The position numbers and the translations under genes are program-made. This document shows, piece by piece, positions 36,255-57,090 of a DNA stretch of 64,000 nt. The notes under the pieces are model-generated. The model had not been told where the DNA came from. It saw only the letters and a list, made by a program, of their open reading frames with translations, and ran no database searches. The stretch's first letter is position 1; each line of letters begins with the position of its first letter. Origin of the DNA: Marsupella aquatica (taxonomy: Eukaryota > Plantae > Marchantiophyta). The DNA is taken from NCBI GenBank assembly GCA_973895155.1, contig OZ316891.1, positions 24,241,899 through 24,305,898 of the forward strand, written 5' to 3'.

Positions 36255-36460
36255 AGAAGTTTTAAGTGTTTTTAGTTAATTTTAAGAGTAGTGCATCTTA
36301 TCTGATTTTTAGAAATGTATTCTAGAGCTTTGGAAGCTATCATACTTCTTTAGTGTATAGTCTGTACCTAGGAAAACCTCTTGGCAAAATCTCAGAGTTT
36401 TCTGACTTATAGTTAGGAAATTAAAAATAGTCAAATTCACTAAGTCTTTAAGAATACCGC

Positions 36461-36590
36461 ATTACGAGTTTACTAGTTTAAAAGTTACTAGTTTACGATT
36501 ACGAGTTCCGACAGATTTCCGATTACGAGTTTAATAGTTTACTAGTTTACGAGTATAAGTCATTTACTAGTTACTAGTTTACGAGTTCAA
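36461..36590 (+). repeat. Cluster of TTACGAG/TTTACTAG motifs downstream of eORF-B
   Basis: Same motif as 15380-15605. Confidence 0.8.
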
Positions 36591-37905: not shown

Positions 37906-39222
37906 TGTGGTGCGTCCCATGGCTCCCTAAACCCAAGAAACCCCCCAGCTCAAGCCAATTCCCGCAGGTTTCGTGCTTGGCGAGGCCGTTTCCGCGGCTT
38001 AGCGGCATGGGACGCTGCTAACCTTCTACTACTACTATTAACATTTTACACACATATACTGGACAGATCCTTCATCGGGTCATGAGATACGTAGCCGGCC
38101 TAATATAGGCCTTCCCCTGTCTTCCCCTGTCTTCCCCTCCGTCTTGTTAGGTATGTTTGGATTCCGCCGCCGGAATGATCCCCAATAGGCTTGGTTAAGC
38201 CGCTAAGACCTCTCTCAGCTCGACACATCCAACTCTCACTCCCCTGCTTACTTTCCTTCCTTCTGTTGATGTGGGCACTCTTCACACAAGTTAATGCGAC
38301 ACACAAATAGCAAAATGACTCATTCTGACTGAGTCATACCATGCACTTGCCATACAAACAGTACATCTCATACACAAGTTCTGCGAACTAAGCCGTGAGG
38401 CCAACTCTATTCAGCTCTTAGGCATGAGGAAACATGAATATACACAAGGGTCACTGTATGACTAACCGAGAGCTTCTCGTACTACTTGATCCCAGCCCGG
38501 CTGGTGCAAACTAAAAACTTGCTAAAGAAGAGGCCCTGAGCTCCCCGCTGCCCAGGTACTTATCCTGGTAGTGGATCCGCCATTCTTTGCATCGTAAGCC
38601 TAATTTACCTGACAGTAATCTACTTGCCCGAATCTACCTATGTACAGCAAGGCAGGAGCACAAGTGTTGCTCCTACCAGTGGGACCGCAATCCCACTAAG
38701 CTAAGTGTCAGGGCCGCTCCTGGTTCTGATCCTAATCCTAAACGTGGAGATCCGCGCCCGCCCTGCCCACTCACGCCTCCTCCCTCCACGTCCGCCCTCC
38801 CTAAAAGGAACGGCGCCCTTGCACCGTCACGACACCGGTGGTGGATCCTCAATGGACGCCCCCAACACTTCCTCCTCAGCCACTGCCGTTGGCCCGCCTA
38901 CTGACAGATTACCTGCCCTTGACCGAGTCAACTCTCCATCGGCCTGACTGGGTCCACCTTCGGCTTCAGCCTCGACACCGGCCTCGGCAATACCCACGGC
39001 TTCGGCCTCAGCCACTCCCACAGCTTCGGCTTCAGCCACTCCCTAGGGTAGTTGGATCCTTAGCCGTGACCCTGTCTGGGGTCGGTGCTGGGTCTACCTC
39101 CTTGATCACCACGGCCTGTGAAGTCGTATTTTCCTTGTTTTGTCACTATACTAAGGTGTTCCTAGGGTGCCTTCCTGCTTTACCCACTTAACCGGCCGAG
39201 TGATTCCTGTCTAGGCATCACA
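37906..39222 (-). repeat. Gypsy-A 3' LTR (1317 bp, internally deleted)
   Basis: Matches 45447-46663 joined to 49984-50075; PPT AAGTGGGGAGCTA at 39235-39223. Confidence 0.95.
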
Positions 39223-42200
39223 TAGCTCCCCACTTAATTGTGAAGCGTCCTCGCGAACAACTTCATCTTCGTCCATATAGTATTTCTTGAGGTGGTCATA
39301 ATGGATGCGAACTGGATATACCTCTCCCGTAATGTTGGCCAATTGTACGGAGCCATTGGGGAACATCATGGTTACTCTAAAGGGTCCTAACCAGCGAGTG
39401 TAAAGCTTTCCTGGAAACCTACTATACCTACTGTCATAAAGTAGCACAAGATCACCGGTATGAATACTAACTACTTTTAACCTTTTATCATACTGCTGCT
39501 TCATGATATTCTGTCTATATTCTACTCTCTCGGCTGAAATCATTCTCGCTTCCTCTAAAGCTTCTAACCTATATTCTCGCTCCTTTAGGCTCTCCTCCGC
39601 TGAGGCTCTTTCCTCAATTGTAACTTGAAATGTCGGTATCTCAAGTTGCATGGGTACCAGGGCTTCTTGTCCAAAGGTTAAGAAGAAGGGTGTATGACCG
39701 GTAGTGGATTTATAGGCAAGATTGTAAGCAAAAACAGCAGCAAACAATTTATCATCCCAATCGAGTTTGTTCTGAGCTACTGTCTTGTTCAATATCTTTC
39801 CTATGATTCCGTTTGCTCGTTCTGTCAACCCGTTTGCCTTTGGATGGTAGGGAGTAGTAGGCCTATGTTTAACTAAATACTGCTCATTTAAACGACTAAT
39901 TATATCATTCAAAAAATGGGTTCCTCTATCACTAACTAATTCTAGGGGTGCTCCATACCTGGTGAAGATCTGCTCATACATGAATCTAGCCGTAGTAATT
40001 GCATCATCCTTCGTTGTTGGTCTGGCCTCTACCCATTTAGTTGCATAATCCGTAGCCAGGATTATGTACTTGTTCCGTCGAGGGTGGGTCAGTGGTTTCA
40101 GAGGTCCAATGTAATCAATACCCCACTTCTCGAATGGTGCCAGAGGTAGAATAGGGTGCAGTGGATGCCTGGTGGACGCCCTTGGTCCTCCCGCTCGTTG
40201 ACAAGGATCGCATTGTTTGATAAACTGATAGACATCTTTGTGCAAGGTGGGCCACCAGTAACCGGCATTTAATATCTTCTTAGACGTGGTTACTGGGGCA
40301 AAATGTCCTCCGGCCTCCTCTCCATGCATGGCCCGTAGGACTCGTTTTACCTCTCTCTTTTCCAAACATCTTTGAATCGTGTCGTTGATTCCATGCTTGT
40401 GCAGTATGCCTTTAATGCACTGATACCGTCTGACCTTCCGCACAAAGACTGCGGCTTGCTCTCGGCTTAATCCTGGCTGTAATCTGGAAGTGCTGAGAAA
40501 TTGTAAAATCTCAGGGTACCATGTACCAGCTATTTCCACAACGAATAGCTCCTCGTCGGGGAATCGATCATCGATGCAATCCGTGGTAGGTTTACCTGTG
40601 ATCCTTGAAAAGAAGTCGGCATTGGCATGTAACTTTCCCGGCTTGATCCTCAGCTCATAGTCAAACTCCTGTAATAGCAAAATCCATCTTGCTACTCTGC
40701 CTGTAAGGTCCGGCTTATTGACTAGGTACTTCAAACTTTCATGATCAGTATGAAAGATTACCTTGTACCCTAGTAAATAATGCCTAAACTTTTTACAAGA
40801 ATAAATGACTCCTAATGCTTCTCTTTCCGTGGTAGAGTAGTTCCGTTCGGCATCGGCAAGCTGACGGCTTGCGAAGTATATGGGATGGTCCCTTCCTTTC
40901 TCATCCAACTGACTTAGTACTGAGCCAATACAGAAGCCCGAGACATCTACAAAAACATGAAAATCTTTGTTCCAGTCCGGTGCTATCATGACTGGGGCCT
41001 CTACTAACATCTGCTTCAATTCTACCACCGCTGTGACTCGTTCGGGTGTGGGTTCGAAGTCTGCTCCTGCCTTGAGCATATTGGTTAATGGTAAAGCTAG
41101 CTTGGCAAAATCCTTGATGAACCGGCGATAGTAACCAATGCATCCCAAGAAGGATCTTACATCCTTTATGTTCTTAGGTTGCATGATATCTAGCCATACT
41201 GCTAGCTTACCTTTGTCAATCTCAATGCCCTTCCTTGATACCTTGTGACCTAGTAGCACCCCCTCGGTTATTGCAAAAAAACATTTATCTGGGTGTAACT
41301 TGAGACCCACCTCTCTACATCTCATGAAGGTTTTCCTGAGGTATTTAGCATGTTTCGATGCCTTCCCGAATACTGCAAAGTCATCAATGAAGATTTCCAT
41401 GAACTTTCTCAAGTAATCATGAAAAATGTTCACCATTAATCGTTGGAACATAGCTGGTGCGTTGCAGAGTCCAAACGGCATACGATTGAAGACATAGATC
41501 CCCCATTCCGTGATGAAGGCCGTCTTGATTTGGTCTTCCTGCCGAATCCTGATTTGGTTATAACCAGAGTATCCATCCATGAATGAATATAGTTCATGAC
41601 TGGCTACCATGTCTAGTACCATATCAGTAAACGGTAAAGGAAAATGGTCTTTTAATGTTGCTTCATTCAGCTTCCTGTAATCCTGACAAACCCGGATCTT
41701 GGGTTTACCATCGGGTCCAGCTTTCTTGGGAACTATCACAATTGGAGACACCCAGTCTGAATGCAGGACTGGAGTGATGAATCCAGCTTCCACTAGTTTG
41801 TCGATTTCTGTTTTGACCAGCAGGGAATACTTCGGGTTCATCCTTCGAATTGGTTGTCGAAATGATTTGGCTCCTAACATGAGATCAATTCGATGTTCCC
41901 CTAGTGTTGGATCTACTCCCTTTAGATCTTGGTGACTCCATGCAAACACATCCTGAAATTCAATCAATAAGTCACTGATCTCTTTCTCGAGCTCAGGTGC
42001 TAGGTTTCTCCCTAAGTTCAGTTCTCTTCCCTCTCCTAAGTCGAGCTTCCGATATTGCCGTGCTTGGATCATATTAATCTGCTTCTTCAAATTCGGGTCC
42101 AGTTCGGCTTCCAGTCTCTCTAATCTCATACCTCCATAAACTGGGATCTCGGCTGGACTAGCCGAGTTGGTCCCTTCCTTGGTGTCCATAGATTGTCCCC

Positions 42201-42453
42201 TTACCGGTCTATTCGGTTTTGAATTAGTGGTCGGCTCCCCTTCCTGCCTTGGCTCTGGATCGTGTCTGTCCATCTCATCCACTTCTTGCTCCTGAGAGTT
42301 AGGCCGCTGTGCTCTCTCGGCTTCTAATAGGGCCTCAATTTGTTCTGCCCTCGTAATCGGCTTGTATGCCGATCCCTTGGTATTTAATTCCTTGCCGATG
42401 ATCGATGGCGTTGTGGACCCCGTCGGCTCTGCCACAACGCCTGCAGAAAATCC
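39211..42453 (-). CDS. pol: Gypsy-A pol (RT, RNase H, integrase with GPY/F-type tail), probably translated by -1 frameshift
   Basis: Open 1088-codon frame: CQDYRKLN, MDGYSGYNQ, MPFGLCNAP, FIDD; DVS...EREAL; HHCC, WGIDY, SDRG, ANGLTER, RWLGPF. Confidence 0.95.
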   Translation of the reverse strand, partial: GFSAGVVAEPTGSTTPSIIGKELNTKGSAYKPITRAEQIEALLEAERAQRPNSQEQEVDEMDRHDPEPRQEGEPTTNSKPNRPVRGQSMDTKEGTNSASPAEIPVYGGMRLERLEAELDPNLKKQINMIQARQYRKLDLGEGRELNLGRNLAPELEKEISDLLIEFQDVFAWSHQDLKGVDPTLGEHRIDLMLGAKSFRQPIRRMNPKYSLLVKTEIDKLVEAGFITPVLHSDWVSPIVIVPKKAGPDGKPKIRVCQDYRKLNEATLKDHFPLPFTDMVLDMVASHELYSFMDGYSGYNQIRIRQEDQIKTAFITEWGIYVFNRMPFGLCNAPAMFQRLMVNIFHDYLRKFMEIFIDDFAVFGKASKHAKYLRKTFMRCREVGLKLHPDKCFFAITEGVLLGHKVSRKGIEIDKGKLAVWLDIMQPKNIKDVRSFLGCIGYYRRFIKDFAKLALPLTNMLKAGADFEPTPERVTAVVELKQMLVEAPVMIAPDWNKDFHVFVDVSGFCIGSVLSQLDEKGRDHPIYFASRQLADAERNYSTTEREALGVIYSCKKFRHYLLGYKVIFHTDHESLKYLVNKPDLTGRVARWILLLQEFDYELRIKPGKLHANADFFSRITGKPTTDCIDDRFPDEELFVVEIAGTWYPEILQFLSTSRLQPGLSREQAAVFVRKVRRYQCIKGILHKHGINDTIQRCLEKREVKRVLRAMHGEEAGGHFAPVTTSKKILNAGYWWPTLHKDVYQFIKQCDPCQRAGGPRASTRHPLHPILPLAPFEKWGIDYIGPLKPLTHPRRNKYIILATDYATKWVEARPTTKDDAITTARFMYEQIFTRYGAPLELVSDRGTHFLNDIISRLNEQYLVKHRPTTPYHPKANGLTERANGIIGKILNKTVAQNKLDWDDKLFAAVFAYNLAYKSTTGHTPFFLTFGQEALVPMQLEIPTFQVTIEERASAEESLKEREYRLEALEEARMISAERVEYRQNIMKQQYDKRLKVVSIHTGDLVLLYDSRYSRFPGKLYTRWLGPFRVTMMFPNGSVQLANITGEVYPVRIHYDHLKKYYMDEDEVVREDASQLSGELCDA

Positions 42454-45377
42454 ACTGTCCCTGCTACTGCTCCCCACTTAGCCGTTTCATCCAATTGGTC
42501 TACATCCTTTACTTCCTCCGGAATTGCAGCTAAAAAGGTGGATTCTATTGTAAAGCAGTCCTCGACCTCTTCGTCTTCTTCTTCCAAGTCACCTTCCATT
42601 GGTTCTTGCCATAATCCGCTGGGGGGTACCTCTGGTCCAAAGACACCTTCTTCGGTTAGGTTAGTGAGGCATTCTAACCAACGTACTTCATCGGCTGACT
42701 CCAGTCCACTGTCGTACCCATCTACTTCCCTTATGCTTTTCCTACGGTCATCCTTAGTGTCCCAGGATACCGTGATAGAGGGGGTCCCGAAAGTGAACTG
42801 CTTTTTACCCCAATCTTCTATTACCTCGGCTAGGTACAGCCATGGCCTACCAATCAATAGCCGGAATGACGTAGGATTTACCGGCTTCATTACTACATAG
42901 TTAATGCTAAAGAAGATACCTCCTATCTCTGTCTTGATGCCGGTTAACACTCCCGTCGGAATGACCTGATATCCATTGGCCATGTTCAACACTCTTCCAG
43001 TCATCTCCGGTGTTAGACCCCACCCTTTTGCTGTTGAATCAATCATAATACATACCCCTGATCCTCCATCGATGGGTACCCGTAGTAATAATTCTCCTTG
43101 AATCATTAATGGTAATGCTGGGGCTCCTTGATCTTCTTCTATCATTAGTACGTCGGATCTGGTTGCTACCTTGGGTAATCTCGGCTTGCCGAGAATAGCC
43201 TTCCTTAATTGCTTCCGGAAGTACGGGCTATTTTTCAATAGTTGACCTACTGTTGCTGAGACTCTAGATTCTAGTACATTTTTAGCCAGGTCATAGGGAA
43301 CAATCGGCTTCTCTTCTGGTGGTGTTTCCGTCTTGGATTCGGCCAGTTTTGCCACGCTAGTCTCCACAGCTGTTGGGTCTTCCGAAGCAAACAATGCTTT
43401 TGCTCGTTTTACATCCTTGGCAATGGCTTCGGTATTCTCCAGGGTTTCTAATTCTCTTAGTTGTTCCTTAACACTAGCCGTAACAGAGGGGTAGAACAAC
43501 TTAGGATGATCTCGATTGAAGTCGCTATCTTGTGAAGGATTGGTTTCACTGGTGGGCTCATGGCTTACCTGTATTGCTGGAGCCCTCCCTACTCCTTCTG
43601 TTGATGTTGACGAAGAGTCGATCCTTTCCTCCATAACCTTCCCTTTATTTTTGGCCAGCCCATCCCACCTTTCCTTCCTTCTGGTAGATCGAGTAGAGAC
43701 CCGGTAGCAATCATGATCTAAATCCTCCTCTGAGAAGGTTGATAGGGCTTCGGCCTCATCATCAGATGGTACGAACTCTGCCTCGGCATCCTCTTGCCAT
43801 CCTAGTTCGATGTGGTTGATTTGAACTCCTTCGGGGGTAGTACCTGGCGGTAAGATCTTGATCGGCAAAAGCTTATGATTTGCGGCCAGGCCTGCCAACC
43901 AAGTAGGACATTGCCCTAGCATATGACCTTCCTGTCGGCATCCCATACATAGCTGAGCTGGTTGTCCATCACCCTGTTTGCGTGCATTCGGGCATTCTCT
44001 AGCAAAATGGCCAGGTTGACCACAATTATAGCACGCCGCAAATCTTTGCACATTCGGCCTAGGAGGTACTGACGGGTTCTGAATAATCCGAGGATACATC
44101 TCTCCTGGATTGTTCCTTAACCCTGACCACAGAGATGCAGGTCTGTTGGATAGGTCTCGTGCTCCAATCTCACTGATGCCGAAAACACTATCAGCGGCAT
44201 CTCCCAAAAAGTACTCTACTTCTCCCTGACATGGTCTGATCTCGGCCACATGCCGAACATGATTAGTATTAAGCTTAGGACACGCATCTTTATGGTGTCC
44301 GGTTTTATAACATAAGGCACACCATACAGAGCTATCCTCCTGTACTACCTTCTTCTTTGGTTTTACCTCTGCAATGATAGCCTTAAGTTGCTCGGTAAGG
44401 GCTACGATGTTATCTGGTGGCTTAGCCTCCATCTTGACTTTCGTCTTCCCTCTCCTTCTGCCCTTCCTTTTCCTAGTTTTTTCTTCTTCAGAACTAGAAG
44501 ATGACTCACTCTTGCTACTCCCACTATTCGAGCTTGACTTATCACTTCTAGACTTCTTGGAATGTTTCTTCTTCTTATCTTTTTTCTTATGGGGTGATCC
44601 CTCCTCTGATGAGGAACTCTCAGACTTAAGCTGTTTCTTCCGGCTTGTGATATCTGCATTAATGTATAATTGAATATCCTTAATTGCTTCGGCTAAAGTC
44701 TCCGGGTTCTCCTTCCTAATTGCAAAACTCATCTTCTGTGGCAAAGCATTCACCAACCATTGAAGTTGCATACCTTCAGATACATTGGTCTTTGTACGTC
44801 TTACCAGTTTCTGAAAGCGTTGCAAGAACTTCCTGAAGGATTTGTTCTCCTTGAACCAAAGTTGTCCCAACTTCAGCACTGCTAGTTCTGAAGTTCCAAT
44901 GGGTCGAAACTCCTTAACAAAGAGTGTTTTGAAGATATCCCAGATGGCTTGATCTTCCACATCTAATGCTCTGTACCAAGGCCTAGCCTCACCCTTGAAC
45001 AGGCCGGGAAGAATCTGCATCTTGATGGCCGATTCTCCATTTGCTGCAGCGGTTCCCTCGAAATCATCCAACCATTCGTCCGGATCCTCATCTCCTCTCC
45101 CATGAAATGCCTTGTAATGTATGCGCGACCGCTGGCTCAATCTGGTCCCTGGCCTCTCGTCTGGCCGTGCCTCTGGTTCCCCCATGTCGGTTGGAGACTC
45201 ACTTCTCCTTACCGACTCTTCTTCTGGTATGTCTTCTTTGACGCCACTTCCAGTTTCGGAGCTACCAGCTCTTTCTGCCCCTCTCAGTCGCTGTGTATCA
45301 TGCCACCCGGCGAGCTGCTGCAGTCGAGCTCTCTCCCGTTGAATCACTCTTTCTTCCCTCGGCGTAAGGTCAGTCAT
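42384..45377 (-). CDS. gag: Gypsy-A gag-protease polyprotein (997 aa)
   Basis: DPDEWLDDFE...GEARPWY gag core, three CCHC knuckles, protease VPIDGGSGVC...LLIGRPWL. Confidence 0.95.
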   Translation of the reverse strand: MTDLTPREERVIQRERARLQQLAGWHDTQRLRGAERAGSSETGSGVKEDIPEEESVRRSESPTDMGEPEARPDERPGTRLSQRSRIHYKAFHGRGDEDPDEWLDDFEGTAAANGESAIKMQILPGLFKGEARPWYRALDVEDQAIWDIFKTLFVKEFRPIGTSELAVLKLGQLWFKENKSFRKFLQRFQKLVRRTKTNVSEGMQLQWLVNALPQKMSFAIRKENPETLAEAIKDIQLYINADITSRKKQLKSESSSSEEGSPHKKKDKKKKHSKKSRSDKSSSNSGSSKSESSSSSEEEKTRKRKGRRRGKTKVKMEAKPPDNIVALTEQLKAIIAEVKPKKKVVQEDSSVWCALCYKTGHHKDACPKLNTNHVRHVAEIRPCQGEVEYFLGDAADSVFGISEIGARDLSNRPASLWSGLRNNPGEMYPRIIQNPSVPPRPNVQRFAACYNCGQPGHFARECPNARKQGDGQPAQLCMGCRQEGHMLGQCPTWLAGLAANHKLLPIKILPPGTTPEGVQINHIELGWQEDAEAEFVPSDDEAEALSTFSEEDLDHDCYRVSTRSTRRKERWDGLAKNKGKVMEERIDSSSTSTEGVGRAPAIQVSHEPTSETNPSQDSDFNRDHPKLFYPSVTASVKEQLRELETLENTEAIAKDVKRAKALFASEDPTAVETSVAKLAESKTETPPEEKPIVPYDLAKNVLESRVSATVGQLLKNSPYFRKQLRKAILGKPRLPKVATRSDVLMIEEDQGAPALPLMIQGELLLRVPIDGGSGVCIMIDSTAKGWGLTPEMTGRVLNMANGYQVIPTGVLTGIKTEIGGIFFSINYVVMKPVNPTSFRLLIGRPWLYLAEVIEDWGKKQFTFGTPSITVSWDTKDDRRKSIREVDGYDSGLESADEVRWLECLTNLTEEGVFGPEVPPSGLWQEPMEGDLEEEDEEVEDCFTIESTFLAAIPEEVKDVDQLDETAKWGAVAGTVDFLQALWQSRRGPQRHRSSARN
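42394..42453 (-). promoter_or_regulatory. Putative programmed -1 ribosomal frameshift signal (slippery heptamer + H-type pseudoknot)
   Basis: G_GAT_TTT (42453-42447) in gag frame, 5-nt spacer, 10-bp stem GGCGTTGTGG/CCACAACGCC, loop GCCGA pairs with downstream TCGGC; the -1 slip enters the pol frame. Confidence 0.8.
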
Positions 45378-45425
45378 TACCTACGCTTCCGTTCTAACTT
45401 CATATCTCACGGCTTAAGAAATGCC

Positions 45426-45446: not shown

Positions 45447-48400
45447 TGTGGTGCGTCCCATGGCTCCCTAAACCCAAGAAACCCCCCAGCTCAAGCCGAT
45501 TCCCGCAGGTTTCGTGCTTGGTGAGGCCGTTTCCGCGGCTTAGCGGCATGGGACGCTGCTAACCTTCTACTACTACTATTAACATTTTACACACATATAC
45601 TGGACAGATCCTTCATCGGGTCATGAGATACGTAGCCGGCCTAATATAGGCCTTCCCCTGTCTTCCCCTCCGTCTTGTTAGGTATGTTTGGATTCCGCCG
45701 CCGGAATGATCCCCAATAGGCTTGGTTAAGCCGCTAAGACCTCTCTCAGCTCGACACATCCAACTCTCACTCCCCTGCTTACTTTCCTTCCTTCTGTTGA
45801 TGTGGGCACTCTTCACACAAGTTAATGCGACACACAAATAGCAAAATGACTCATTCTGACTGAGTCATACCATGCACTTGCCATACAAACAGTACATCTC
45901 ATACACAAGTTCTGCGAACTAAGCCGTGAGGCCATCTCTATTCAGCTCTTAGGCATGAGGAAACATGAATATACACACAAGGGTCACTGTATGACTAACC
46001 GAGAGCTTCTCGTACTACTTGATCCCAGCCCGGCTGGTGCAAACTAAAAACTTGCTAAAGAAGAGGCCCTGAGCTCCCCGCTGCCCAGGTACTTATCCTG
46101 GTAGTGGATCCGCCATTCTTTGCATCGTAAGCCTAATTTACCTGACAGTAATCTACTTGCCCGAATCTACCTATGTACAGCAAGGCAGGAGCACAAGTGT
46201 TGCTCCTACCAGTGGGACCGCAATCCCACTAAGCTAAGTGTCAGGGCCGCTCCTGGTTCTGATCCTAATCCTAAACGTGGAGATCCGCGCCCGCCCTGCC
46301 CACTCACGCCTCCTCCCTCCACGTCCGCCCTCCCTAAAAGGAACGGCGCCCTTGCACCGTCACGACACCGGTGGTGGATCCTCAATGGACGCCCCCAACA
46401 CTTCCTCCTCAGCCACTGCCGTTGGCCCGCCTACTGACAGATTACCTGCCCTTGACCGAGTCAACTCTCCATCGGCCTGACTGGGTCCACCTTCGGCTTC
46501 AGCCTCGACACCGGCCTCAGCAATACCCACGGCTTCGGCCTCAGCCACTCCCACGGCTTCGGCTTCAGCCACTCCCTAGGGTAGTTGGATCCTTAGCCGT
46601 GACCCTGTCTGGGGTCGGTGCTGGGTCTACCTCCTTGATCACCATGGCCTGTGAAGTCGTATTACTCCTTGACCCTGAAGGTTTCCGCTTCTTCTTCGTT
46701 GGTGGCTCGGCAGCTGGTCCCTTCCCCTTCCCACTTACTTCCGGCACTGGTGCAGTTGGCGCGGCTTGTCCTTCGGCAATTACCACCCCTGGTAACTGGT
46801 TTGTCCCAACGGGAGATGGACCTGCTGCAGCTAAGCATTTAAATACTGCGGCTTGTTTCTTCAGCCGCTCTGTTTGGTTGTCGGCCCGCCGCTGTAGGTT
46901 CTCCATCTTCCTCGTGATTTCCTCCAACTCCTCTTGGGTTTCATCCAGGTCCTTACGTGCCCCCTCCAGCTCGTTTTTGGCCTCCTCCTGCTCCCTGTGG
47001 GCTTCCTCCAATTCCTTCTTCAAGGTAGCCCTCTCCTCCCGGGTTGCTCTTAGCTCCTTGTCGAGCTCTGCAATGATGACAGACTCCATCTGGTTCATCT
47101 TGGCGTAAGTCTGTTTGAGCATCTCGTCCTTCTCCCTTAGGTCGGCCTTGAAGCTGGCCGTCAGGGACGCAAGCTCCTGCTGCAGCGCCATAATCCCTTG
47201 ATAGGATTTCCCTAACTCGACCTCTTTCTGCTCAAGGGCTCCGCGGATTTTCTCGAGCTCCCCTTTCAACGCCCATTCCTTTCTTTGGGTCTCCGCCATG
47301 GCCCGGCTGTTGGCTGTTATGTGGGCCTCCTCTGTATTCTTCAGCTCTTGCTTCCACTTCTCCCTCTCTTTGATCGTGTCGGCCAACTCTTCCTGCGTCT
47401 GAGTCAGTTTATCCTTGATATTCTGATTATCAGCCTGTGCGGTGTCCAACTGCCCCTGCATGATGTTCAGCTCATGTCGTTTAATCCGCAGTTCATCTTG
47501 GGCTTTCTTGGCCGCCCTTAGATCTTCAATCTCGGCTTCCATCCTCCTAAGCCGCCGAATGACCTCGTCCTTCTTGCTTCTCTCTAAAGCCACCGCTTCT
47601 TCTAATTGGTGCTTCTCCAACTGCTCCCTATGGAAAAAGGGTCCTATCTCCAACTCCTCTCCAAAGATGCCGAGCGCAAGTTCCCCACACATCTCACCAT
47701 ACTCCATGGCTCTATTCTTAGCGTAGGTGGAGTAAGTAGAAGTGATCGGCATCGCCCATCGTGGCCTCTGCTCCCAAGCCGTCCTGCGGATCTCTTCAAT
47801 CGTGGCTAGAGGTTTGCTTCCTTTTTCGGCTAGCCGCCTGATGTCCTCCGGCCAATCTCCTCCTGGTAAATCCTTTTCCTTAGCCAGGGCGGCCTCTTCC
47901 TCCTGCTTGATTCGCTCCTGAAATTCCTGCACCGTCTGTTTTATGCCGTCGAAGCTCGGGGGAGCAACATCTGGTGGGGGAGACTCAGGGCTACTCTGCT
48001 GGTTGGGGTCCCCTCGCACTACCCTTGGAAGTGTGGGGACAAACCGGCCACAGGTCCTTACTCCTGGAACGTGATGGTCCGACCCATAGCCGGAATTATC
48101 ATGGCTGCAGTCCTCCACTGCCTCCTCTACCTCTTGGACGTCCGGCTTCTCCCTCTCCTCTTCGTCGGTAGGAGCTTCAGGCAATTCTGCCTCAGATTCG
48201 GAGCTTGAGGTTCCCACGTACATTCGAACACCTGGCTTGGATTCCGGCCTGATTCTCTCCTTGTCTCCAGCAAAGGGGTTTTCTCTTGTGAGCCGGTGTA
48301 GGCCTACCTCTGTAGTAGTGTCCTGCATTGTTGCCGTTGCCGTTGTTGTTGCCGATGCCGATTTCTTTTCTTTCTCCAGTAGTTTCAGCAGACTCTGCAT

Positions 48401-50075
48401 GCCTGGTTGCTGCATCGGCAAGTCTTCCTTCCTGGGCCTAAACACCTGCTCGATCGTAGGACTAACAGGTGGTTGAGGCTTCTCAGCCAACGGCCTCGGC
48501 GTTGGAGCTTCCTCGGGTGCCCTTACCTGCAGGGGAAGTACCGGGGCAAAAGTCTGACCTCTGGCATACCGGCACAACAGCGGCATGTGATAGCCAAGCC
48601 GCGACACGCTCCCCATGCCGATTACCTGCTGCTCCTCCTTTAAGATCTTCTTCAATTGGTTGAGGAGGTACCCGTTGTAGTCCCGGCTTGGGTCTGGCCT
48701 TTCTGCCAGATAGACCTGTGCCTTGCCGATCTCTGCCCTCGACAAGTTACAATGCATGGTCACCCGCAAGAAGTCGATCATCTCTCCTATGTGCGGGTTG
48801 GTGCAGGTGTTCCGGAAGAAGCCATTCTTCGTTGATGGCCCGGGGAACGACCGGAACTCCTTGTCAGGCAGGGTCTTCCTGGTATCAACTTTGGTCTTAT
48901 TGCCTATTGGCAAGCCAAACACTTCGGCAATCACCTTGGGAGTAAGATAGAAATCCTTCCCATATATCCTCGTGCAATTGGTCTCGGGTTCCCATGACCC
49001 CACGAATTCTAATAGGTCTGACTCCGGTACCTCCGGCTTCAGCCATGGTAATCTTACAAAGGCCTCCAAGCCGGATCCGGCCATGAAGCCTTGGTACTTC
49101 TTGGTCTGCATGGCCGTAAAGCATGCATCCTCCTCCCGTGCAAAATGTAGTTGCACCTCCACCGGTAGGGTTTCCGCCCAGCCCTTCCAGGTGTCATCCC
49201 TGGTTGGAATGGCCTTGATGGGATTGACCTCCTCCTCTTCGGCTTCTCCCTGCCTCCTGCTCTGCTGCTCGGCTGGCTTCTTTGGTGCCGCCGACCTCGT
49301 TCTTTTTGCCGGGGTGGCTTCATCGTTGACGGCTCCCTTCCTCTTCATCTCTGCTGCCGTGGAGGTTTCTCCTAGCACCGTTGCCTGGGTCCACCTTTCC
49401 GTGCTACCCTTTAATTCCCAGTGTATGTCGTTGCAGTTCTTGATGGCCTCTCGGATGCCGACGACGCTGTCTTTGCAAAACAGAAGATCGTCGAGTTGAT
49501 TGGAAGTAGGCGTCCACAGGAACTCGTCCTTGATGAGTTCGCCTCCTAAGAAAGCCGTCTTCTGCAGCTCCCACAATCGAGCGAGCTCCTGCCGTTCTCG
49601 AGCTGCCCTTTCTGACTCCTCGTCCTCGTAAGTCTTGATGTACTCAGTTGCCCGTTCGAACAGGCATCCCCAGAAATGTGCCGCTTGATTGACGTTGCTC
49701 ATACCCTCCTTAGGTCGATCGTCGGTATCTACTCTCTCCCCGAGTGCTTGCCTAAGCAGCTGACAGTAGTTGGCCTCCCGTAGTCGTCTGCCTAGTTCGT
49801 GCTCGCAAATGAGCCACCATCTCCTGCAAGCGCTCCTTACCCCTCTCCTTTGCCGGTCCTTCTTCCCGTTGATCCTTCCTAGCCGCCGACGCTTAACGCG
49901 CCCTAACCCTAATCGGGTTTTCACCCTCAGCCTTACCTCCGGCCTCTACCCGGGTTCCATGGTTGCCCCTAATTGTTTATATTTTCCTTGTTTTGTCACT
50001 ATACTAAGGTGTTCCTAGGGTGCCTTCCTGCTTTACCCACTTAACCGGCCGAGTGATTCCTGTCTAGGCATCACA
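45447..50075 (-). repeat. Gypsy-A 5' LTR (4629 bp), contains eORF-A
   Basis: Bounded by the PBS and the TSD; both termini match the short 3' LTR; full-length homology to the solo LTR 2660-7364. Confidence 0.95.
46565..49702 (-). CDS. eORF-A: LTR-encoded 1045-aa protein of unknown function (plant-mobile-domain/Transposase_32-like core, long coiled coil, NLS-like motifs)
   Basis: Uninterrupted ORF (open from 49924, ATG 49702); GLEAFVRLPW..LLEFV..IYGKDFYLTPKVIAEVFGLP; E/K/L-rich coiled coil; PPTKKKRKP; TATAAA at 49981-49976. Confidence 0.88.
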   Translation of the reverse strand: MSNVNQAAHFWGCLFERATEYIKTYEDEESERAARERQELARLWELQKTAFLGGELIKDEFLWTPTSNQLDDLLFCKDSVVGIREAIKNCNDIHWELKGSTERWTQATVLGETSTAAEMKRKGAVNDEATPAKRTRSAAPKKPAEQQSRRQGEAEEEEVNPIKAIPTRDDTWKGWAETLPVEVQLHFAREEDACFTAMQTKKYQGFMAGSGLEAFVRLPWLKPEVPESDLLEFVGSWEPETNCTRIYGKDFYLTPKVIAEVFGLPIGNKTKVDTRKTLPDKEFRSFPGPSTKNGFFRNTCTNPHIGEMIDFLRVTMHCNLSRAEIGKAQVYLAERPDPSRDYNGYLLNQLKKILKEEQQVIGMGSVSRLGYHMPLLCRYARGQTFAPVLPLQVRAPEEAPTPRPLAEKPQPPVSPTIEQVFRPRKEDLPMQQPGMQSLLKLLEKEKKSASATTTATATMQDTTTEVGLHRLTRENPFAGDKERIRPESKPGVRMYVGTSSSESEAELPEAPTDEEEREKPDVQEVEEAVEDCSHDNSGYGSDHHVPGVRTCGRFVPTLPRVVRGDPNQQSSPESPPPDVAPPSFDGIKQTVQEFQERIKQEEEAALAKEKDLPGGDWPEDIRRLAEKGSKPLATIEEIRRTAWEQRPRWAMPITSTYSTYAKNRAMEYGEMCGELALGIFGEELEIGPFFHREQLEKHQLEEAVALERSKKDEVIRRLRRMEAEIEDLRAAKKAQDELRIKRHELNIMQGQLDTAQADNQNIKDKLTQTQEELADTIKEREKWKQELKNTEEAHITANSRAMAETQRKEWALKGELEKIRGALEQKEVELGKSYQGIMALQQELASLTASFKADLREKDEMLKQTYAKMNQMESVIIAELDKELRATREERATLKKELEEAHREQEEAKNELEGARKDLDETQEELEEITRKMENLQRRADNQTERLKKQAAVFKCLAAAGPSPVGTNQLPGVVIAEGQAAPTAPVPEVSGKGKGPAAEPPTKKKRKPSGSRSNTTSQAMVIKEVDPAPTPDRVTAKDPTTLGSG

Positions 50076-50603: not shown

Positions 50604-53600
50604 TGTAGAGTAGGGTTTAGAGTAAGAATAACTATTCTTCTCTTTAATAGCCTAGATTCGTTCCCGTTAAGAGCTATTGAGACCTAAAAGATTGTAATAT
50701 GATACTTTGAGTACTTTTGAGTAACATACTCAGGTTACAAGCCTTTTTAACATGCTCAGGTTTATGGAAGGAATTTTATGATACTTCCATGAAAGGTATG
50801 ACGTTTGTATCGTCCATAGTGCAATCAAAAGGGGGTAAAAAGTGTTAAACAAAACCAAAAGCCAGCGGCGTGAAAACTGATAGAAGGTGAGTTATAGATG
50901 GAAATACACCTTATCACTACATAGTAACTCATGACCAGCGGTAGTACATTAAGAATCATCGGTGTAAAAACTCATGTAAAACTGATGCCTACATATCTTC
51001 TTCAAACCCGCCATCTTTAGAAAATTATAAAAGATCAGCATAAGGTAGCCCGTATTGATTTTCTGACCTATGTCAAAGCAAGGTGGTACTAATCACTCCG
51101 AACCAACTTATTCTTTTATTCAATCCATCAGATTGCTCTTTTGGATCTATGCAATTTGTGGAATTCTAGTGGTGAATTTGCATCAGCTCCTCATTGAATA
51201 CAAGAACTCTATAGTCAACACGAATCAATAGGCTTTTGCATGATCTCATGCATGCGTTTCCAGTCAGCCTATGGGTCAACCAAGCATTACTAGTCACATC
51301 AAACAGCTTTTTCTAGTAAAGGATAGTCACACACTAAGATTGAATCACAAACCATAGATTACCAAAGATTACTAAAATAGACTTCTCATTGATTTATTAC
51401 TTCAAAGAGAAGGAGACTTAAAGTTGAAAGCTAATTTCATGAAAGTCATATTAAGTCTGAGGTTCAAGGAAGAATCTCTCCCTTATATATAAGAGAGATC
51501 CGCTTGAAAAACTAGATGAAAAGACATGCCTTTTCATTATGTAAAAACTAATAAGGTTAACTAGATAAAAATAACTATACTGTGTGAAAGAGGAGGTCAT
51601 ATCACTTCCTTCCTTTCTTACAAAACATGGAAAATGGTCGGAACAAAGGCGGAAATCAAATTTCCGGTTAAACCTTCTTTTGAATATAAATTCCGGTTGA
51701 ACCTGTTTTTACAGAATCCGGTTCATCCGTCTTGGTGTTTAACTATGGCTTCAGGAATTTCTGGCTCTTCAGGAATCTCTGGAGTGATAGTGGGAGTAGG
51801 TGCTTGGCTTTGGAGGGGTTCTATAACATAGGTCACTCCTGTGGAGGTAGTAACAATGTTGCCAGGGGGAACCGGGTTGGTAGGATACTTGCCCATGAGG
51901 GAAGTCCAATCGAAAGGTCCGGGAGTGGTGGTAGGAATGGTCCTTGAGGAAGAGGTGAAATCAGGAGCAGTAGTATCAAGAGTGGTAGGTTCTCCTGATA
52001 GAGGGGATGGAGAATACTGAACTGGTGTCTCCCCATCATCCTTAGCCCAGATCTGGTGTAACTCATTCATTTGGCCCAAAATCTCCTTCATTGCATTCAG
52101 GCAATCCTCAAGTTTATCTCCATAGTCTTGAGAGATACGAATGACAGTAGCAAGGCAAGTAGGATTGGGTACTTTTACAAAGTACTCTCGAAAGAGTTCT
52201 GTTTGGACCAAATCTCTACCTCTGGTGTTCAGGAAAGGGTCCAAACGATCCACTAAATCCTCCAGACTCTCAATGGCTTCTTCCTCCTTACTCCTCTGTC
52301 TTCTCTCCTTCAGCTGGTTTTCACAATCTGTGAGTCTAACAGACTTCTCCTTGAGGTCCTTGTCCATTCTCTCCACCTTCTCCTTGTTGCCAGCAGTCTG
52401 TATTACATGCTCAAAGTTTGCTACTAATTCTGAGATTGGAACACCTGCTACTCGAGCCATCTTGGCCAGGTTCTGTTCCATGATACCCATCTTCACTTGT
52501 ATTGCCTCCATCTCTCGCTGGATGACTGAGAAATGATTCTGAGAGGATTCTGAGAGCGAACCGGAAGTAGGAATAGAGGTGCTGGCCGATTGAACCGGAT
52601 TCCGTCCTAAAGTTAACTTACGGCGCTTGGGAGGTTCAACAACTTGTACCTCTGCTTCCTCTTCGTCCTCTTCTGTGTCCTCTACCTTAACAATCTCTGG
52701 ATCTGGGACTCCATAAAGGACATAACTGTTCTTTGTCCCCAAAAGATTCTTCTCCTGTTTGAACAGGACTCCTGCTTGGGCATACAAATGAATCACGTAG
52801 GAAGACAAGGGGGTAGCCGATTTCCCATTGAGATTAGTTGCCAGCTTCTGTATCACATCATACAGGATGGTAGCCCAAGAGATAGTCCTCCCCTTGTAGA
52901 GGGTAGCAATGATAGTGCTCCCTACTCTCTGGATGACTAGTTTTGGTTTCTCTGGGTATAACAGGGGAACCAGGAAAGCCAATACCCTTCTCAAGTCTCC
53001 ATCTATGCACTGATTAACACTCCATCCTTCTTTCTCGTCCATCTTTCCTGCAAAGTAATCTATGGTGAGGTTCTCTCCTCGGGGAAGTAGACCAGAGCCC
53101 TCTGTATGCACTTGGTAAGCTTTGCCAATAGCCTCTTTGGTCCAAAGCTTGGGTTGGGCTCTGATGGTATTAGAAAACTCACTTGGGACTTCTCCAGTGA
53201 GTATCTCTCGGATAACATCTTCACTCTGCCATGCCCAGGTCATCAGAAGTAGGTTGTGGCATCCCATCCTCTCTAGATCAATCCGCAACCTCTCCTTCTC
53301 TTCTGGTCCGGTTGGTAGTACAGGTCTTAGAGGCTTCAAAGCAATAGGTAAATCCTTCCTCTTAGACCGTCAAACTTCGCTCTTGACAGGGGTAGTGTCC
53401 GCCTTCACCTTCTCAGCAGATTGGGGTCTCTGGTTCCTCATGGTGGCTCAACCGGTTCTCGTTAAGGTGAAATCCGGTTCAGAGCGGAAGCCGGGTCAAA
53501 CGTCTGGCCTTCCTTCTCCAAGATCGAAGACTATTTACTTCCCCAGCCTTCCCTCCCTTTATAGGAGTAGGCTGCCACCTTACACGATTCAGTCAATTCT

Positions 53601-54097
53601 CTCCTATACCATGCACTCACAGAGTTATCAAGAATGGTCCTCTCATCCGGACCAAAGACCCTCAACTAGACGGAAGAGCTTCCTCACACTACAACGTCGT
53701 CGCATCACTATTCGCTCGGGAGGTCAAGACTTACTTCGTTCAGCCTTGAGAGGTGTGAGGAGAGGAAAGCCGGTTCAGCCTGTTTTGGTCTCAGATTCGG
53801 CTACAGGCTGATCCAAGACTTATGGTTTAACGGTTAAGCCGCTCCTTGCATTGAGATCCTCCGGTGGAATGGACCGGACTTAGATCATTAGGGAAACCGG
53901 TTCCACGGGTTGGGGAGGTTAGAACGGATTTCTTCTGTTGAACCGGCCATCTCAACCAAGCAACTTTTCCGGTTAGCACCTTAAAGTGCTCATAGGAGCC
54001 TAACAGGTCTAAAAGGTCATAAGAGTTAGTGTTTCCAAGGGTTAAAATTTTAAAATTTCCCTTATTTCTCCTTTTACCAAATAAACATCATCTCACA
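50604..54097 (-). repeat. Gypsy-C 3' LTR (3494 bp), contains eORF-C
   Basis: Begins TGTGAGATG right after PPT GAGGAGGGGGCTA (54110-54098) and ends CTCTACA at 50604; the second copy 62801-64000 already includes the eORF-C stop codon and last codons; TATA-like TATATATAA near 51484-51492. Confidence 0.88.
51723..53441 (-). CDS. eORF-C: LTR-encoded ~570-aa protein (homolog of eORF-B core, acidic patch, NLS-like PPKRRKL, coiled coil); in-frame TGA at codon 24
   Basis: GCCACCATG at 53441 in frame with the 538-aa ORF; TGA at 53372-53370; CTATAAA about 117 bp upstream. Confidence 0.82.
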
Positions 54098-54108: not shown

Positions 54109-56964
54109 TCAAATGGTGCCGCGCCCTCGCAAACCATCATCTGTAGGTAGGAAATATTTCTTCACCTGGGAACCATTAACTCGAGTAGAATGTTCTTGCC
54201 CGTCAAGGTCCGCTAGTTGTAAGGATCCATTAGAGAAGATATACTTTACTTGGTATGGTCCAAGCCACCTTGTATGTAGTTTTCCCGGAAAGGCAAAATA
54301 TCTGTTGTCATATAATAAAACATAATCCTCTTTCACAATCTTTACTGGTTTCATCTTCCGGTCAAAGCGAGAAGCACGTTGTTGTTGTTGCCTTCGAGTT
54401 TCTAAAAGAGAAAAATGTCTATCTTCTTCTAATTTTTCCAAATCTTCTAATCTACTGATTTGACTATCCTCAACGGGAAGACGGTCAGAAATATCAATTC
54501 GTGCTGTGGGTATTTCAAATTCTATGGGGACCACAGTATCTAAACCATAAACTAAATAAAAGGGTGTGCGTTTAGTGGTTATCTTTTCTGCAGTGCGATA
54601 AGCCCACAAGGCTGAATGAAGCTTTTGGTCCCAATCTGTCTTATGTGCAGAAACCACTTTAACTAATATTCTCTCCATTAACCCGTTAGCCTTCTCAGTT
54701 AAGCCATTTGCTTTAGGGTTATAAGGAGTAGTCTTCCTATGCTTGATTAGATATTTGTTAGTGATATGCTCAATGGTGTTATTGAGAAAGTGCAAGCCCC
54801 TATCACTAACAAGCTCTAATGGACAACCAAATCTGGTAATAATATCTTCAAAAAGGAATTTAGCCGCAGTGGCAGCGTCATTCTTTCTTGTGGCTCGAGC
54901 TTCAACCCATTTGGTGGTATAATCTGTTGCTAAGATAATGTATCTATTGCGAGTGTGTACAGCAGCAGGCTGTATGGGTCCTATAAAATCAATGCCCCAC
55001 TTTTCAAATGGTGCTAAAGGCATAATGGGTGTTAGAGGCCAATGGGAAGTTGCAGTAGGCTTACCCATACGCTGACATGGGTCACAAGATTGTATGTACT
55101 TGTGAGTGTCGCGGTGCATTGTTGGCCACCAATAACCAGCATCTTTTATTTTTTTAACAGTAACATTCACCGCATAGTGACCGCCAGCCTGTTCTGTGTG
55201 CATAGCTGCAATCACTCTGTCCACTTCACGTGTCTCGAGACAACGCTTCAATCTCTGGTCGGGAGTTAGTTTGTACAAAGTTCCTCGTTGTAAGGTGTAA
55301 GGACCTACCTTATGCATGAATACTGCTTGTTGTTCCTGGCTTAAGTTAGGAGGGAAGATTCCTTGAGTAAGCATTTGGACAATATCAAAGTAAAGTGAAT
55401 CTTCACCTTCCACATGCCATAGATCCTCATCAGGGAAATCATCCGATAACGGATTGATACTATCTTCACCAGGTAAGCGGGAAAGGAAATCGGCATTGTC
55501 ATGGTGTTTCCCAGGTCTTACTTGTACTTCAAAGTTAAATTCTTGTAACAACAAAACCCATCTAGCAATTATTCCTGACAAGTCGGCCTGATTCACCAAA
55601 TACTTCAATGATGAATGGTCTGTATGAAAAATTGTCTTGTATCCAAGTAGGTAGTGACGGAATTTCTTACAGGAGAAAATGACACCCAATGCTTCTCGTT
55701 CGGTGACGGTGTAGTTCTTCTCTGCAGCATTCATCTGCCGACTTGCAAAGTAAATTGGTTGATCCTTCTTATCATCATTTAATTGACTGAGCACTGCACC
55801 AATGCAAAATGCGGAAGAGTCTATGTACACATGAAAATCTTTCTCCCAATTTGGGGGAATCAACACCGGGGCTTTGGTTAATCTGTCCTTTAGTTCTTCA
55901 AAGGCCTGTTGTCTTACATTGGTCCACTCATAATCAATGTCCTTTTTCAGCAGTTGAGTCAAAGGCATAGCAATGTTAGCATAGTTTCGAATAAATCGAC
56001 GATAGTAACCAACATAGCCTAGGAACCCTCTTAAAGCTCTCAAGTCGGTGGGGGGTTGTAACTTTTGTATAATTTTAACTTTTTCAACATCCACCTCAAT
56101 TCCTCGGCTAGAGATGACATGGCCTAGTAAAATGCCTTCTTTCATACCAATAAAGCATTTGTCTGGGTGTAAGCAGAGTTGTGCCTCCCTACATTTTTGA
56201 AAGGTCAAGCGAAGTTTCTCTAAGTGTGATTCGGCTGAACTAAACACACAAAAATCATCAATAAAAATTTCTAGAAACCGATGAAGATATTCCTGGAAAA
56301 TAATCATCATTATTCTTTGGAATGTTCCAGGAGCATTACACAGTCCAAAGGGCATCACATTAAATGCATATGTCCCCCAATCCGTCGTGAAGGTGGTTTT
56401 ATCCCGATCCCCTTCTCGTACTGAAACTTGGTTGTACCTCGAGTAACCATCTAAGAAACTGAAAAGAGAGTGAGCAGCTACTGTATCAAGCACGATATCA
56501 ATGAATGGTAAGGGGTAGTGGTCCTTCCTTGTTACTGCATTCAGTTTTCGATAATCTTGACACACGCGGATCTTCACTTTTCCATCGGGGCCGGACTTCT
56601 TGGGCACAATGACAATGGGGGATACCCATTCACTACTAAGTACTGGAAAAATAAATCCTGCTTCGGTTAGCTTGTCTATCTCTTCTTTAACCATAATAGA
56701 ATACTTAGGGTTGAGACGGTACTGTCTTTGCCGAATAGGTACTGATCCTTCCAGGAGATCAATCCGATGTTGCCCAAGGTATGGGTGAATTCCTTTGATG
56801 TCTTTGTGGCTCCAGGCGAAAACATCTCGATATTGTTTCAGTAAAGAGATATACTTATCCCTTAAGTCACCTTGAATGTGTTTGCTGATATTTAGAAACT
56901 TCCCTGGTTCAATCTCAATCTTTTGGCAAGCCTTTGGGTCTACTATGCCTTCTGTGAATCCCAT
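54109..56964 (-). CDS. pol: Gypsy-C pol (RT-RNase H-integrase)
   Basis: Open 951 aa with all domains; a few substitutions in conserved motifs (LDGYSRYNQ, LSGIIARW). Confidence 0.93.
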   Translation of the reverse strand: MGFTEGIVDPKACQKIEIEPGKFLNISKHIQGDLRDKYISLLKQYRDVFAWSHKDIKGIHPYLGQHRIDLLEGSVPIRQRQYRLNPKYSIMVKEEIDKLTEAGFIFPVLSSEWVSPIVIVPKKSGPDGKVKIRVCQDYRKLNAVTRKDHYPLPFIDIVLDTVAAHSLFSFLDGYSRYNQVSVREGDRDKTTFTTDWGTYAFNVMPFGLCNAPGTFQRIMMIIFQEYLHRFLEIFIDDFCVFSSAESHLEKLRLTFQKCREAQLCLHPDKCFIGMKEGILLGHVISSRGIEVDVEKVKIIQKLQPPTDLRALRGFLGYVGYYRRFIRNYANIAMPLTQLLKKDIDYEWTNVRQQAFEELKDRLTKAPVLIPPNWEKDFHVYIDSSAFCIGAVLSQLNDDKKDQPIYFASRQMNAAEKNYTVTEREALGVIFSCKKFRHYLLGYKTIFHTDHSSLKYLVNQADLSGIIARWVLLLQEFNFEVQVRPGKHHDNADFLSRLPGEDSINPLSDDFPDEDLWHVEGEDSLYFDIVQMLTQGIFPPNLSQEQQAVFMHKVGPYTLQRGTLYKLTPDQRLKRCLETREVDRVIAAMHTEQAGGHYAVNVTVKKIKDAGYWWPTMHRDTHKYIQSCDPCQRMGKPTATSHWPLTPIMPLAPFEKWGIDFIGPIQPAAVHTRNRYIILATDYTTKWVEARATRKNDAATAAKFLFEDIITRFGCPLELVSDRGLHFLNNTIEHITNKYLIKHRKTTPYNPKANGLTEKANGLMERILVKVVSAHKTDWDQKLHSALWAYRTAEKITTKRTPFYLVYGLDTVVPIEFEIPTARIDISDRLPVEDSQISRLEDLEKLEEDRHFSLLETRRQQQQRASRFDRKMKPVKIVKEDYVLLYDNRYFAFPGKLHTRWLGPYQVKYIFSNGSLQLADLDGQEHSTRVNGSQVKKYFLPTDDGLRGRGTI

Positions 56965-57090
56965 GGACTCAAATTCCCAATTGGCCGTGTTCTCAACGGG
57001 GTCAAGTTCCGTAGGGTCAGGTGATCAAACTCTATTTTCTCGTGTAGGTTCAACAAACAAGGTAGACTTTGACGGTTGGGGTGGAAATAG

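Follow-up and report, generated by a model that had tools for sequence, protein, structure and literature searches.

The window, that is, the whole 64-kb stretch of DNA analysed, contains three gypsy elements (A, B and C) and a solo LTR of the A family, and all three elements are associated with an accessory ORF (eORF) that is oriented in the sense direction relative to pol, as the earlier note had stated. One copia element holds both A and C as nested elements. The features discussed below are located as follows.

2660..7364, forward strand: A-family solo LTR, 4705 bp, TG..CA termini, flanks GTTGT/ATTGT (4/5 TSD match)
9836..15249, forward strand: element B gag-pol, fragmented
15250..16673, forward strand: putative element B LTR, 5' part, with a TTACGAGT cluster and the first 319 codons of the eORF (ATG at 15716)
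16674..34779, no strand assigned: insertion with CACTA boundaries that interrupts the B eORF, TIR 14/15, TSD GGA, Transposase_21 match
34783..37501, forward strand: putative element B LTR, 3' part, with the rest of the eORF (to 36254), a second TTACGAGT cluster, GGCATGTC, TATAAG and ACGGGAAC
37906..39222, reverse strand: element A 3' LTR, 1317 bp, with an internal deletion of ~3.3 kb
39223..39240, reverse strand: element A polypurine tract (PPT), directly after pol
39211..42477, reverse strand: element A pol (RT-RH-INT), overlapping the gag-pro frame (gag-pro-pol span 39211..45380)
42384..45380, reverse strand: element A gag-pro, overlapping the pol frame
45447..50075, reverse strand: element A 5' LTR, full length and gene-carrying, 4629 bp
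46565..49702, reverse strand: element A eORF, 1045 aa, ATG 49702, stop 46565
49976..49981, reverse strand: TATAAA upstream of the A eORF, LTR offset 95, also present in the solo LTR
50604..54097, reverse strand: element C 3' LTR, 3494 bp, CTACA end
51398..51723, reverse strand: element C downstream AACCGG cluster, second TATA (~51490) and AATAAA (51398), after the eORF
51723..53441, reverse strand: element C eORF, 572 codons, ATG 53441, stop 51723
53455..53974, reverse strand: element C upstream AACCGG cluster and TATA (53563, LTR offset 535), before the eORF
54109..60662, reverse strand: element C gag-pro-pol, with a stop and frame change in gag-pro
62801..64000, reverse strand: element C 5' LTR, 3' 1200 bp (the window end cuts the rest), which takes in the final 81 nt of the eORF, with PBS-like TGGCGCCGCTGCCGGGGA next to it

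Element A, the sole complete element here, is flanked at both ends by the TSD GTATG and amounts to 15.5 kb if counted with two full LTRs. Its 5' LTR, which has TG..CA termini and PBS-like TGGCGCTAG just inside and matches both the 3' LTR and the solo LTR, carries the 1045-aa ORF without an internal stop, exactly as initially described. Outside the deletion, the 3' LTR differs from it at 6 of 1307 aligned bases, but the deletion has removed the TATA and nearly the whole eORF. The idea that each insertion doubles the gene dosage thus fails for the only complete element available. The solo LTR is ~86-87% identical to the LTR of element A and spans the same gene, so that the long LTR is the family form in A; the gene did survive solo-LTR formation as DNA, although in this copy frameshifts break the eORF. 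Contigs in all four runs cover the entire A LTR, and A-family contigs also contain joints to LTR ends inside other LTR copies. Given a dN/dS of 0.20, away from ~1, the A eORF was under purifying selection.

The 3' LTR of element C begins with TGT right after the PPT, and contigs in runs X1 and X2 bridge the pol-PPT-LTR junction. The two LTRs of C show a single mismatch over the visible 1200 bp, the last 81 nt of the eORF included. The previously reported LTR length and shared ORF end stand, whereas the ORF itself is not intact, with an in-frame TGA at codon 24. In element B, removal of the CACTA insertion joins 958 and 1472 nt into the anticipated 809 codons plus a stop (frame arithmetic), and each half has its counterpart in the natural 808-aa proteins P0160, P0274 and P0275 (residues 1-318 and 320-807, respectively, at 69-73%). 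The 4143-bp LTR of B nevertheless stays putative: no 5' LTR or TSD was found for this element within the 64-kb window, and neither the C-terminus of pol nor a PPT is present. As in element C, ACGGGAAC is located 63 nt before the CTACA end of this putative LTR. Overall, the location of the gene inside the LTR is established for A, nearly so for C and deduced for B.

Pol is directly followed by the PPT, and all sequence past the PPT, the gene included, is repeated as LTR, based on the 5' LTR and solo LTR in A and on the repeat reaching into the ORF in C. This position of the PPT suggests that the eORF is likely to reside in U3. For element C, the U3 placement is well argued, because the second TATA (LTR offset ~2607) and the AATAAA (offset 2700, ~90 nt behind) both follow the ORF; jointly with the downstream cluster, they likely represent the genomic-RNA promoter and R region. 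A purine run at LTR offset 2479, after the eORF stop of C, is a candidate relic of a second PPT. The TATA-like boxes attributed to the genes of A and C are present at offsets 95 and 535, respectively, and a TATA-like box after the ORF is found in C, L001, L003 and B. Clustering of CG motifs exceeds that in all shuffles in B, L001, L003 and L005 and is borderline in C and L002; in element A and the A-family solo LTR, it is not above shuffles. The motifs differ between families, and the clusters precede both promoter-like sites.

The eORFs of A, B and C belong to one family, in which the relationship between B and C is clear and that of A is remote. The A protein combines a remote VANC/Transposase_32-like domain (~aa 196-390) with a long coiled-coil-like region and a KKKRK NLS-like site, and the C protein contains a PKRRK NLS-like site and an N-terminal domain predicted to be VANC21-like. 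The family is predicted to adopt a VANC/PMD-like fold: the sole whole-domain structural match is VANC, a sequence-specific anti-silencer, at 9% identity. The model of the A domain reached a pLDDT of 50, from an alignment consisting mostly of B/C-family rows, and its fold search was uninformative. By ESM features, eORF look-alikes are found in the ATHILA/Transposase_32 families (0.88-0.91). Among the matches listed, one of the 75 eORF family members has a Transposase_32 match (E 0.005), and no eORF piece has a curated Pfam match (best 25 of 35 families). A word-based search with residues 1-420 of the A eORF yielded no homologues among 6327 near-length candidates and 3148 shorter proteins, none of the 51 IMG/VR pattern matches to the C eORF was confirmed, and Foldseek against PDB and BFVD returned nothing at E<=0.001. 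A PDB sequence-profile search with the eORF gave mostly coiled-coil matches.

We give an even chance to the reading that, in these related gypsy families, a selected accessory gene resides in long LTRs, likely in U3, and that its predicted VANC/PMD-like product likely binds short CG motifs, specific to each family, in its own LTR, keeping the element unsilenced and transcribed. Under this scenario, plus-strand priming at the PPT after pol would make the gene part of U3. The first promoter (motif cluster, TATA and leader) would produce a subgenomic mRNA for the eORF, and the second, after the eORF stop (motif cluster, TATA and AATAAA), the gag-pol RNA. Equipped with the fold domain, a coiled coil and an NLS-like site but lacking a membrane segment, the protein would be imported into the nucleus, form oligomers and bind both motif clusters of the LTR, where it may oppose DNA methylation or Polycomb silencing, similar to VANC and MAIN/MAIL1. 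Given that the gene lies within the LTR and the predicted fold is that of an anti-silencing factor, the LTR is likely to be a self-activating module. The protein and its target sites would move as a single unit in every LTR, solo LTRs included, and solo LTRs with an intact gene could affect other copies of the family in trans. More tentatively, and with clearly less than even confidence, we propose a widespread bryophyte gypsy lineage in which the LTR would be a self-regulating circuit with a two-promoter U3, a VANC-fold sequence-specific anti-silencer and co-evolving CG motifs.

What the extra ORFs of Athila/Tat-type plant retrotransposons do has long been an open question (PMC7264820, PMC11963269), to which a compact, confidently modelled domain and a candidate motif per family, on one LTR of 3.5-4.7 kb, offer a testable answer. 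Solo LTRs could then be viewed as genes acting in trans. If the circuit reading is correct, an LTR retrotransposon would encode its own anti-silencing system, its solo LTRs would be reactivators in trans, and the 'env-like' proteins of Athila, TRP28 of Retand, the PMD proteins of Ogre and VANC might all belong to a single ancient family that counters host defence against transposons. Such ORFs end up annotated as host 'hypothetical proteins', which calls for caution. Should the anti-silencing role fail, an unusual yet modest layout variant would remain.

Alternatively, the LTR-borne protein might be a nuclear DNA- or chromatin-binding factor that serves retrotransposition itself (import of the pre-integration complex, targeting to repeats or centromeres, or RNA handling), with the CG motifs being sites for host factors. 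The long coiled-coil region and NLS-like sites fit such a role, as do the nesting of A and C in one copia, the A-family joints within other LTR copies and the lack of a clear motif in A, and functions of this kind have been proposed for other additional ORFs (PMC7264820). However, the only whole-domain structural match is an anti-silencer, and the family-specific motifs, like VANC targets, stand ahead of both promoter-like sites, so that we regard this alternative as unlikely, albeit with an appreciable chance. A less probable arrangement, for A and perhaps more widely, places the gene in R/U5, with a single RNA running from the LTR start through the eORF and then gag-pro-pol, akin to an Ogre-like upstream ORF but inside the LTR. 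This placement is possible for A because its only canonical TATAAA precedes the ORF and is kept in the solo LTR, with just weak TATATT/TATAT words downstream. It is at odds with the TATA-like boxes after the ORF in C, L001, L003 and B and the AATAAA of C, and minus-strand strong-stop DNA of >4 kb would be unusual. It is highly improbable that the eORF encodes a membrane or movement protein of the env-like type, a role formerly suggested for the ORFs of Athila: despite the sense orientation 3' of pol and the ATHILA-family look-alikes, no 19-residue window in the four ORF pieces reaches a hydropathy of 1.6, NLS-like sites are present and predicted viral structures include no match. Equally improbable is that the real LTRs are short, like the 1317-bp 3' LTR of A, and that the ORF is a nested insertion, internal gene or misassembly; the unequal LTRs of A, the truncated 5' LTR of C and the missing partner LTR of B could be so explained, but the long form recurs in a solo LTR that is independent, ~14% diverged and flanked by a TSD, the A 3' LTR deletion junction displays AATA microhomology without TIR or TSD, the C repeat extends into the ORF and contigs cover the entire A LTR, which largely refutes an insertion or misassembly for A.

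Returning to the anti-silencing reading, VANC of the Mutator-like VANDAL transposons and the plant mobile domain proteins MAIN/MAIL1 differ from the present case, in which the gene is retrotransposon-borne, within a gypsy LTR. Instead of YAGTATTAY/AGTTGTCC, the candidate targets here have CG cores; VANC has been described as dicot-specific (PMC13547354). The antisense TRP28/SMC ORFs of Retand and the PMD ORFs of Ogre also combine a predicted DNA-binding domain with a coiled coil, and Grande gene23 has its own promoter and a nuclear location (PMC11963269, PMC7264820). Similar as the Retand and Ogre accessory ORFs are in this combination, they are antisense or outside the LTR, in lineages with aRH, and Retand LTRs measure only 315-1194 bp. 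The Pfam scan of the A and C gag-pol ORFs recovered the gypsy order PROT-RT-RH-INT with no aRH or chromodomain match; aRH is present in 92-100% of Tat elements (TatI-III, Ogre and Retand), and membership in Tat was rejected. Among retroviruses, MMTV sag and HIV nef lie in or overlap U3, and foamy viruses possess an internal promoter and Tas, a DNA-binding activator that the virus itself encodes and that drives a circuit of two promoters. Here, the gene and a promoter-like site are both wholly inside the LTR, and the likeness is one of layout, with homology not expected.

The elements resemble Athila, an OTA non-chromovirus gypsy lineage, in the lack of aRH and chromodomain (A and C), the 5-bp TSD (A), the size of 12-16 kb, the sense extra ORF 3' of pol and the ESM-based likeness to eORF-3'F/ATHILA ORF-1 (PF03078) and Transposase_32 (PF20167). 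The Athila PBS is mostly of the tRNA-Asp type, which TGGCGCCGCTGCCGGGGA of element C presumably resembles and TGGCGCTAG of element A does not. In Athila, the ORF sits between pol and the 3' LTR (PMC7264820), whereas here it lies beyond the PPT, inside the LTR, and has no Pfam ATHILA match. Phygy and Selgy, the moss and lycophyte non-chromoviruses, are likewise gypsy elements of non-seed plants without aRH, and the internal region of A, too, is almost all polyprotein. However, Phygy has a 4-bp NCGN TSD and 7.7-10 kb, and Selgy a 4-bp TSD and 4.4-6.7 kb, both with no eORF recorded, and the TSD length, size and eORF of A disagree with these descriptions, so that membership in either was rejected. 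The layout with an LTR-borne gene is absent from REXdb, for which the LTR length cap implied by the earlier note is not the reason, the REXdb cap having been 6000 bp. In a quick RT tree of 101 rows, built without REXdb references, the RTs from the window group with liverwort sequences, in a clade of 44 rows that includes Riccia (SH-aLRT 98), and the seed-plant rows are separate (SH-aLRT 99).

Gypsy elements in the window, a nest of plant transposons with 0 N bases, carry a real gene inside the LTR, with a conserved domain and clusters of short motifs; for two of them, A and C, the layout as such is very probable.

Main features (window coordinates)
45447-50075, minus strand: 5′ LTR of A, 4629 bp, TG..CA, then PBS-like TGGCGCTAG
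2660-7364: solo LTR of the A family, 4705 bp, TG..CA, flanks matching at 4/5 positions, 86-87% identical
54097-50604: 3′ LTR of C, 3494 bp, from the TGT after the PPT to CTACA
16674-34779: CACTA-bounded insertion in the extra ORF (eORF) of B, TIR 14/15, TSD GGA
37512-37905 and 50076-50602: copia element hosting A and C, PBS-like TTATCAGCACGA

Element A is flanked on both sides by GTATG, and its pol is immediately followed by the PPT. The earlier note had claimed an intact 1045-aa ORF and a TATA-like box of its own for the 5′ LTR, and both are borne out: the reading from 49702 to 46565, sense to pol and inside the LTR, is uninterrupted and begins 279 nt after a TATAAA at LTR offset 95. The 3′ LTR measures only 1317 bp, with offset ~92-96 joined to offset ~3413 of the long form at an AATA microhomology, and outside this deletion 6/1307 aligned bases differ from the 5′ LTR, so that the deletion most likely postdates insertion. 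The long LTR is the family form, because the solo LTR has it as well. The whole A LTR is covered by contigs of four sequencing runs (the four examined among 15 listed, three being from organisms different from the first); the match of one contig stops exactly at 50075, beyond which the contig continues, and joints to 45447 were also seen across these runs.

In the solo LTR, five indels shift the frame of the eORF and others lie at its extreme end, but the 1038 aligned codons include no stop. The single pairwise comparison of this copy with the A eORF gives dS 0.40, dN 0.081 and dN/dS 0.20 (bootstrap 0.16-0.26), away from the value near 1 that the earlier note had named as a refuting outcome; in the same pair, the ratio is 0.13 for aa 196-390, 0.19 for aa 701-950 and 0.92 (0.39-2.47) for the last 95 aa. 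Selection has acted on the A eORF. The copia element that hosts both A and C has its PBS-like site, which we take to be of the Bianca type, at 37585 and gag at ~50220-50600; a second, related copia gag (68% DNA identity) lies at 280-1068.

The pol-PPT-LTR junction of C is spanned by contigs in two runs, X1 and X2. Of the ORF of ~570 aa first described here, the length (572 codons) and the recurrence of its 3′ end stand: the 5′ LTR, truncated by the window end, has one different base in its visible 1200 bp and holds the last 81 nt of the eORF. Codon 24 is TGA and, therefore, the eORF is not intact in the window copy. The TATA-like box attributed to C is present as TATAAAG at LTR offset 535, ahead of the eORF start at 657; the eORF ends at 2375, followed by TATATAA at ~2607 and AATAAA at 2700. 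No purine-run-plus-TG site able to start a shorter LTR was found between the PPT and the eORF end, the sole such site in the LTR (offset 2479) lying within the repeated part. This arrangement suggests that the C eORF lies in U3 with its own promoter.

The two parts of the B eORF, 958 and 1472 nt, agree in frame across the insertion and match consecutive stretches of natural 808-aa proteins at 69-73%; thus, the 809-aa ORF reconstructed in the earlier note holds. Without the insertion, the segment 15250-37501 amounts to 4143 bp; as in C, it starts with TGT after GGCTA and ends in CTACA, and in both elements ACGGGAAC lies 63 nt from that end; it is probably an LTR. Within the window, B has no TSD and no 5′ LTR, including on the side of 7602-8822, its PPT is missing and its pol is cut short. 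The 7602-8822 stretch (minus strand), between the solo LTR and B, holds two ORFs, 151 and 254 aa long, neither of which hits a curated Pfam family. The Logan contigs that carry intact 808-aa relatives (the P0160 cluster) measure 3.4-3.9 kb, close to the length of a single LTR of this kind. The insertion itself contains a 465-bp unit in 6.2 copies, 99% alike (27981-30872), and an ORF at 33162-34019 (plus strand) whose product has a 21-aa triple repeat and matches the RNase H1 N-terminal (Cauli_VI) domain at E 1e-15.

B and C share 82% RT identity, A and B 67%; in a quick tree (101/123 sequences, the 22 too short being left out) the RTs of all three elements group within a clade of 44 rows that includes Riccia rows (SH-aLRT 98), seed-plant rows standing apart. 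C pol has its nearest named relatives in liverworts, Calypogeia fissa (73%, with 59% of the query covered) and Riccia sorocarpa (~60%), and the best relative of the C eORF is a Calypogeia protein, which makes a liverwort the probable host. Over 195 aa, the eORFs of B and C match at 33% identity (E 1e-27 to 1e-32), and a search with the C domain retrieved 506 clusters at E<=0.001. When 1149 window ORFs are ranked by a profile built from 75 of these clusters plus the window pieces, the two A-family ORFs come third and fourth (E 4e-5 and 4e-4), over ~100 columns; the A eORF appears remotely akin to the B/C family, with partial support. In JGI metagenomes, 6/30 pattern matches are relatives, three of which include pol (L002 and the near-copies L003 and L004) in the order pol, PPT, TGT, ORF, the ORF lying 570-770 nt after TGT. 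In L003, a CA end 76 nt past ACGGGAAC would delimit an LTR of 3566 bp. Given that none of these three loci has a paired LTR and that L003 has a possible second PPT 3′ of the ORF, they support, rather than prove, the same layout elsewhere. A word like TTCGCGAGGACGC is conserved directly ahead of the PPT in A (39223-39260), C (54098-54135), L002 (2350-2387) and L003 (2490-2524).

According to the accessible text of reviews and surveys, the extra ORFs of plant elements lie in the internal region (PMC7264820, PMC11963269, PMC6317226). The survey of Neumann et al. allowed LTRs up to 6000 bp, noted lengths up to about 5 kb and, in its accessible portion, does not place eORFs in LTRs (PMC6317226). 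Its Additional file 5, as far as accessible, gives eORF shares of 23% (5′F) and 26% (3′F) for TatII and of 33% and 18% for Tekay; since LTR-borne ORFs would give 5′F/3′F symmetry, the layout may be latent in these records. The Athila row of that file seems displaced by one column. The accessible parts of PMC12885004, PMC12844716 and PMC1142308 contributed nothing decisive, and the published literature covered, mostly other than subscription papers, describes neither a plant LTR-internal gene nor an anti-silencing gypsy ORF.

VANC proteins, the anti-silencing proteins of VANDAL transposons, bind family-specific motifs of 8-9 nt accumulated in element non-coding DNA, according to the accessible text of PMC5735166. 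Words were counted in the non-coding parts of the LTRs in nine sets (L004 and L006 left out) and compared with 100 dinucleotide shuffles. The best word of every shuffle is beaten by TTACGAGT in B (nine copies), GATCCGGA in L003 (seven) and CCGGATC in L001 (seven) and L005 (nine). Enrichment is borderline in L002 and in C, where AACCGG occurs 10 times (0.5 expected), below the 95th percentile of shuffle best words; against the same shuffles, no word is enriched in A, the solo LTR or the C leader. The motifs of B and C form two clusters, one ahead of the ORF and one between its stop and the second TATA-like box, and four control stretches contain nothing comparable. A CG core is common to all motifs, which are candidate binding sites.

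The fold of the eORF domain is predicted to be VANC/PMD-like. The eORF would lie in U3, the element would produce two transcripts, and the protein would be a nuclear oligomer binding DNA and functioning in anti-silencing or activation; we give this chain, taken whole, an even chance. The main rival, a nuclear role of the protein in integration or RNA handling, is unlikely, and a location of the A eORF in R/U5 instead of U3 is more doubtful still. Retroviral comparisons are MMTV sag and nef, genes in or overlapping U3, and foamy-virus Tas. The gene may have entered U3 through loss of a distal PPT or, alternatively, left U3 in Athila through gain of a PPT.

The ~2.9-kb leader of C, from the PBS to the gag core (59903-62800, minus strand), contains a 301-aa stop-to-stop ORF (61260-62165) that hits no Pfam family, along with another AACCGG cluster near 60840-60930; a 30-bp tandem repeat in the pro-RT linker of C (57096-57193) also bears the AACCGG/CCGGTT word.
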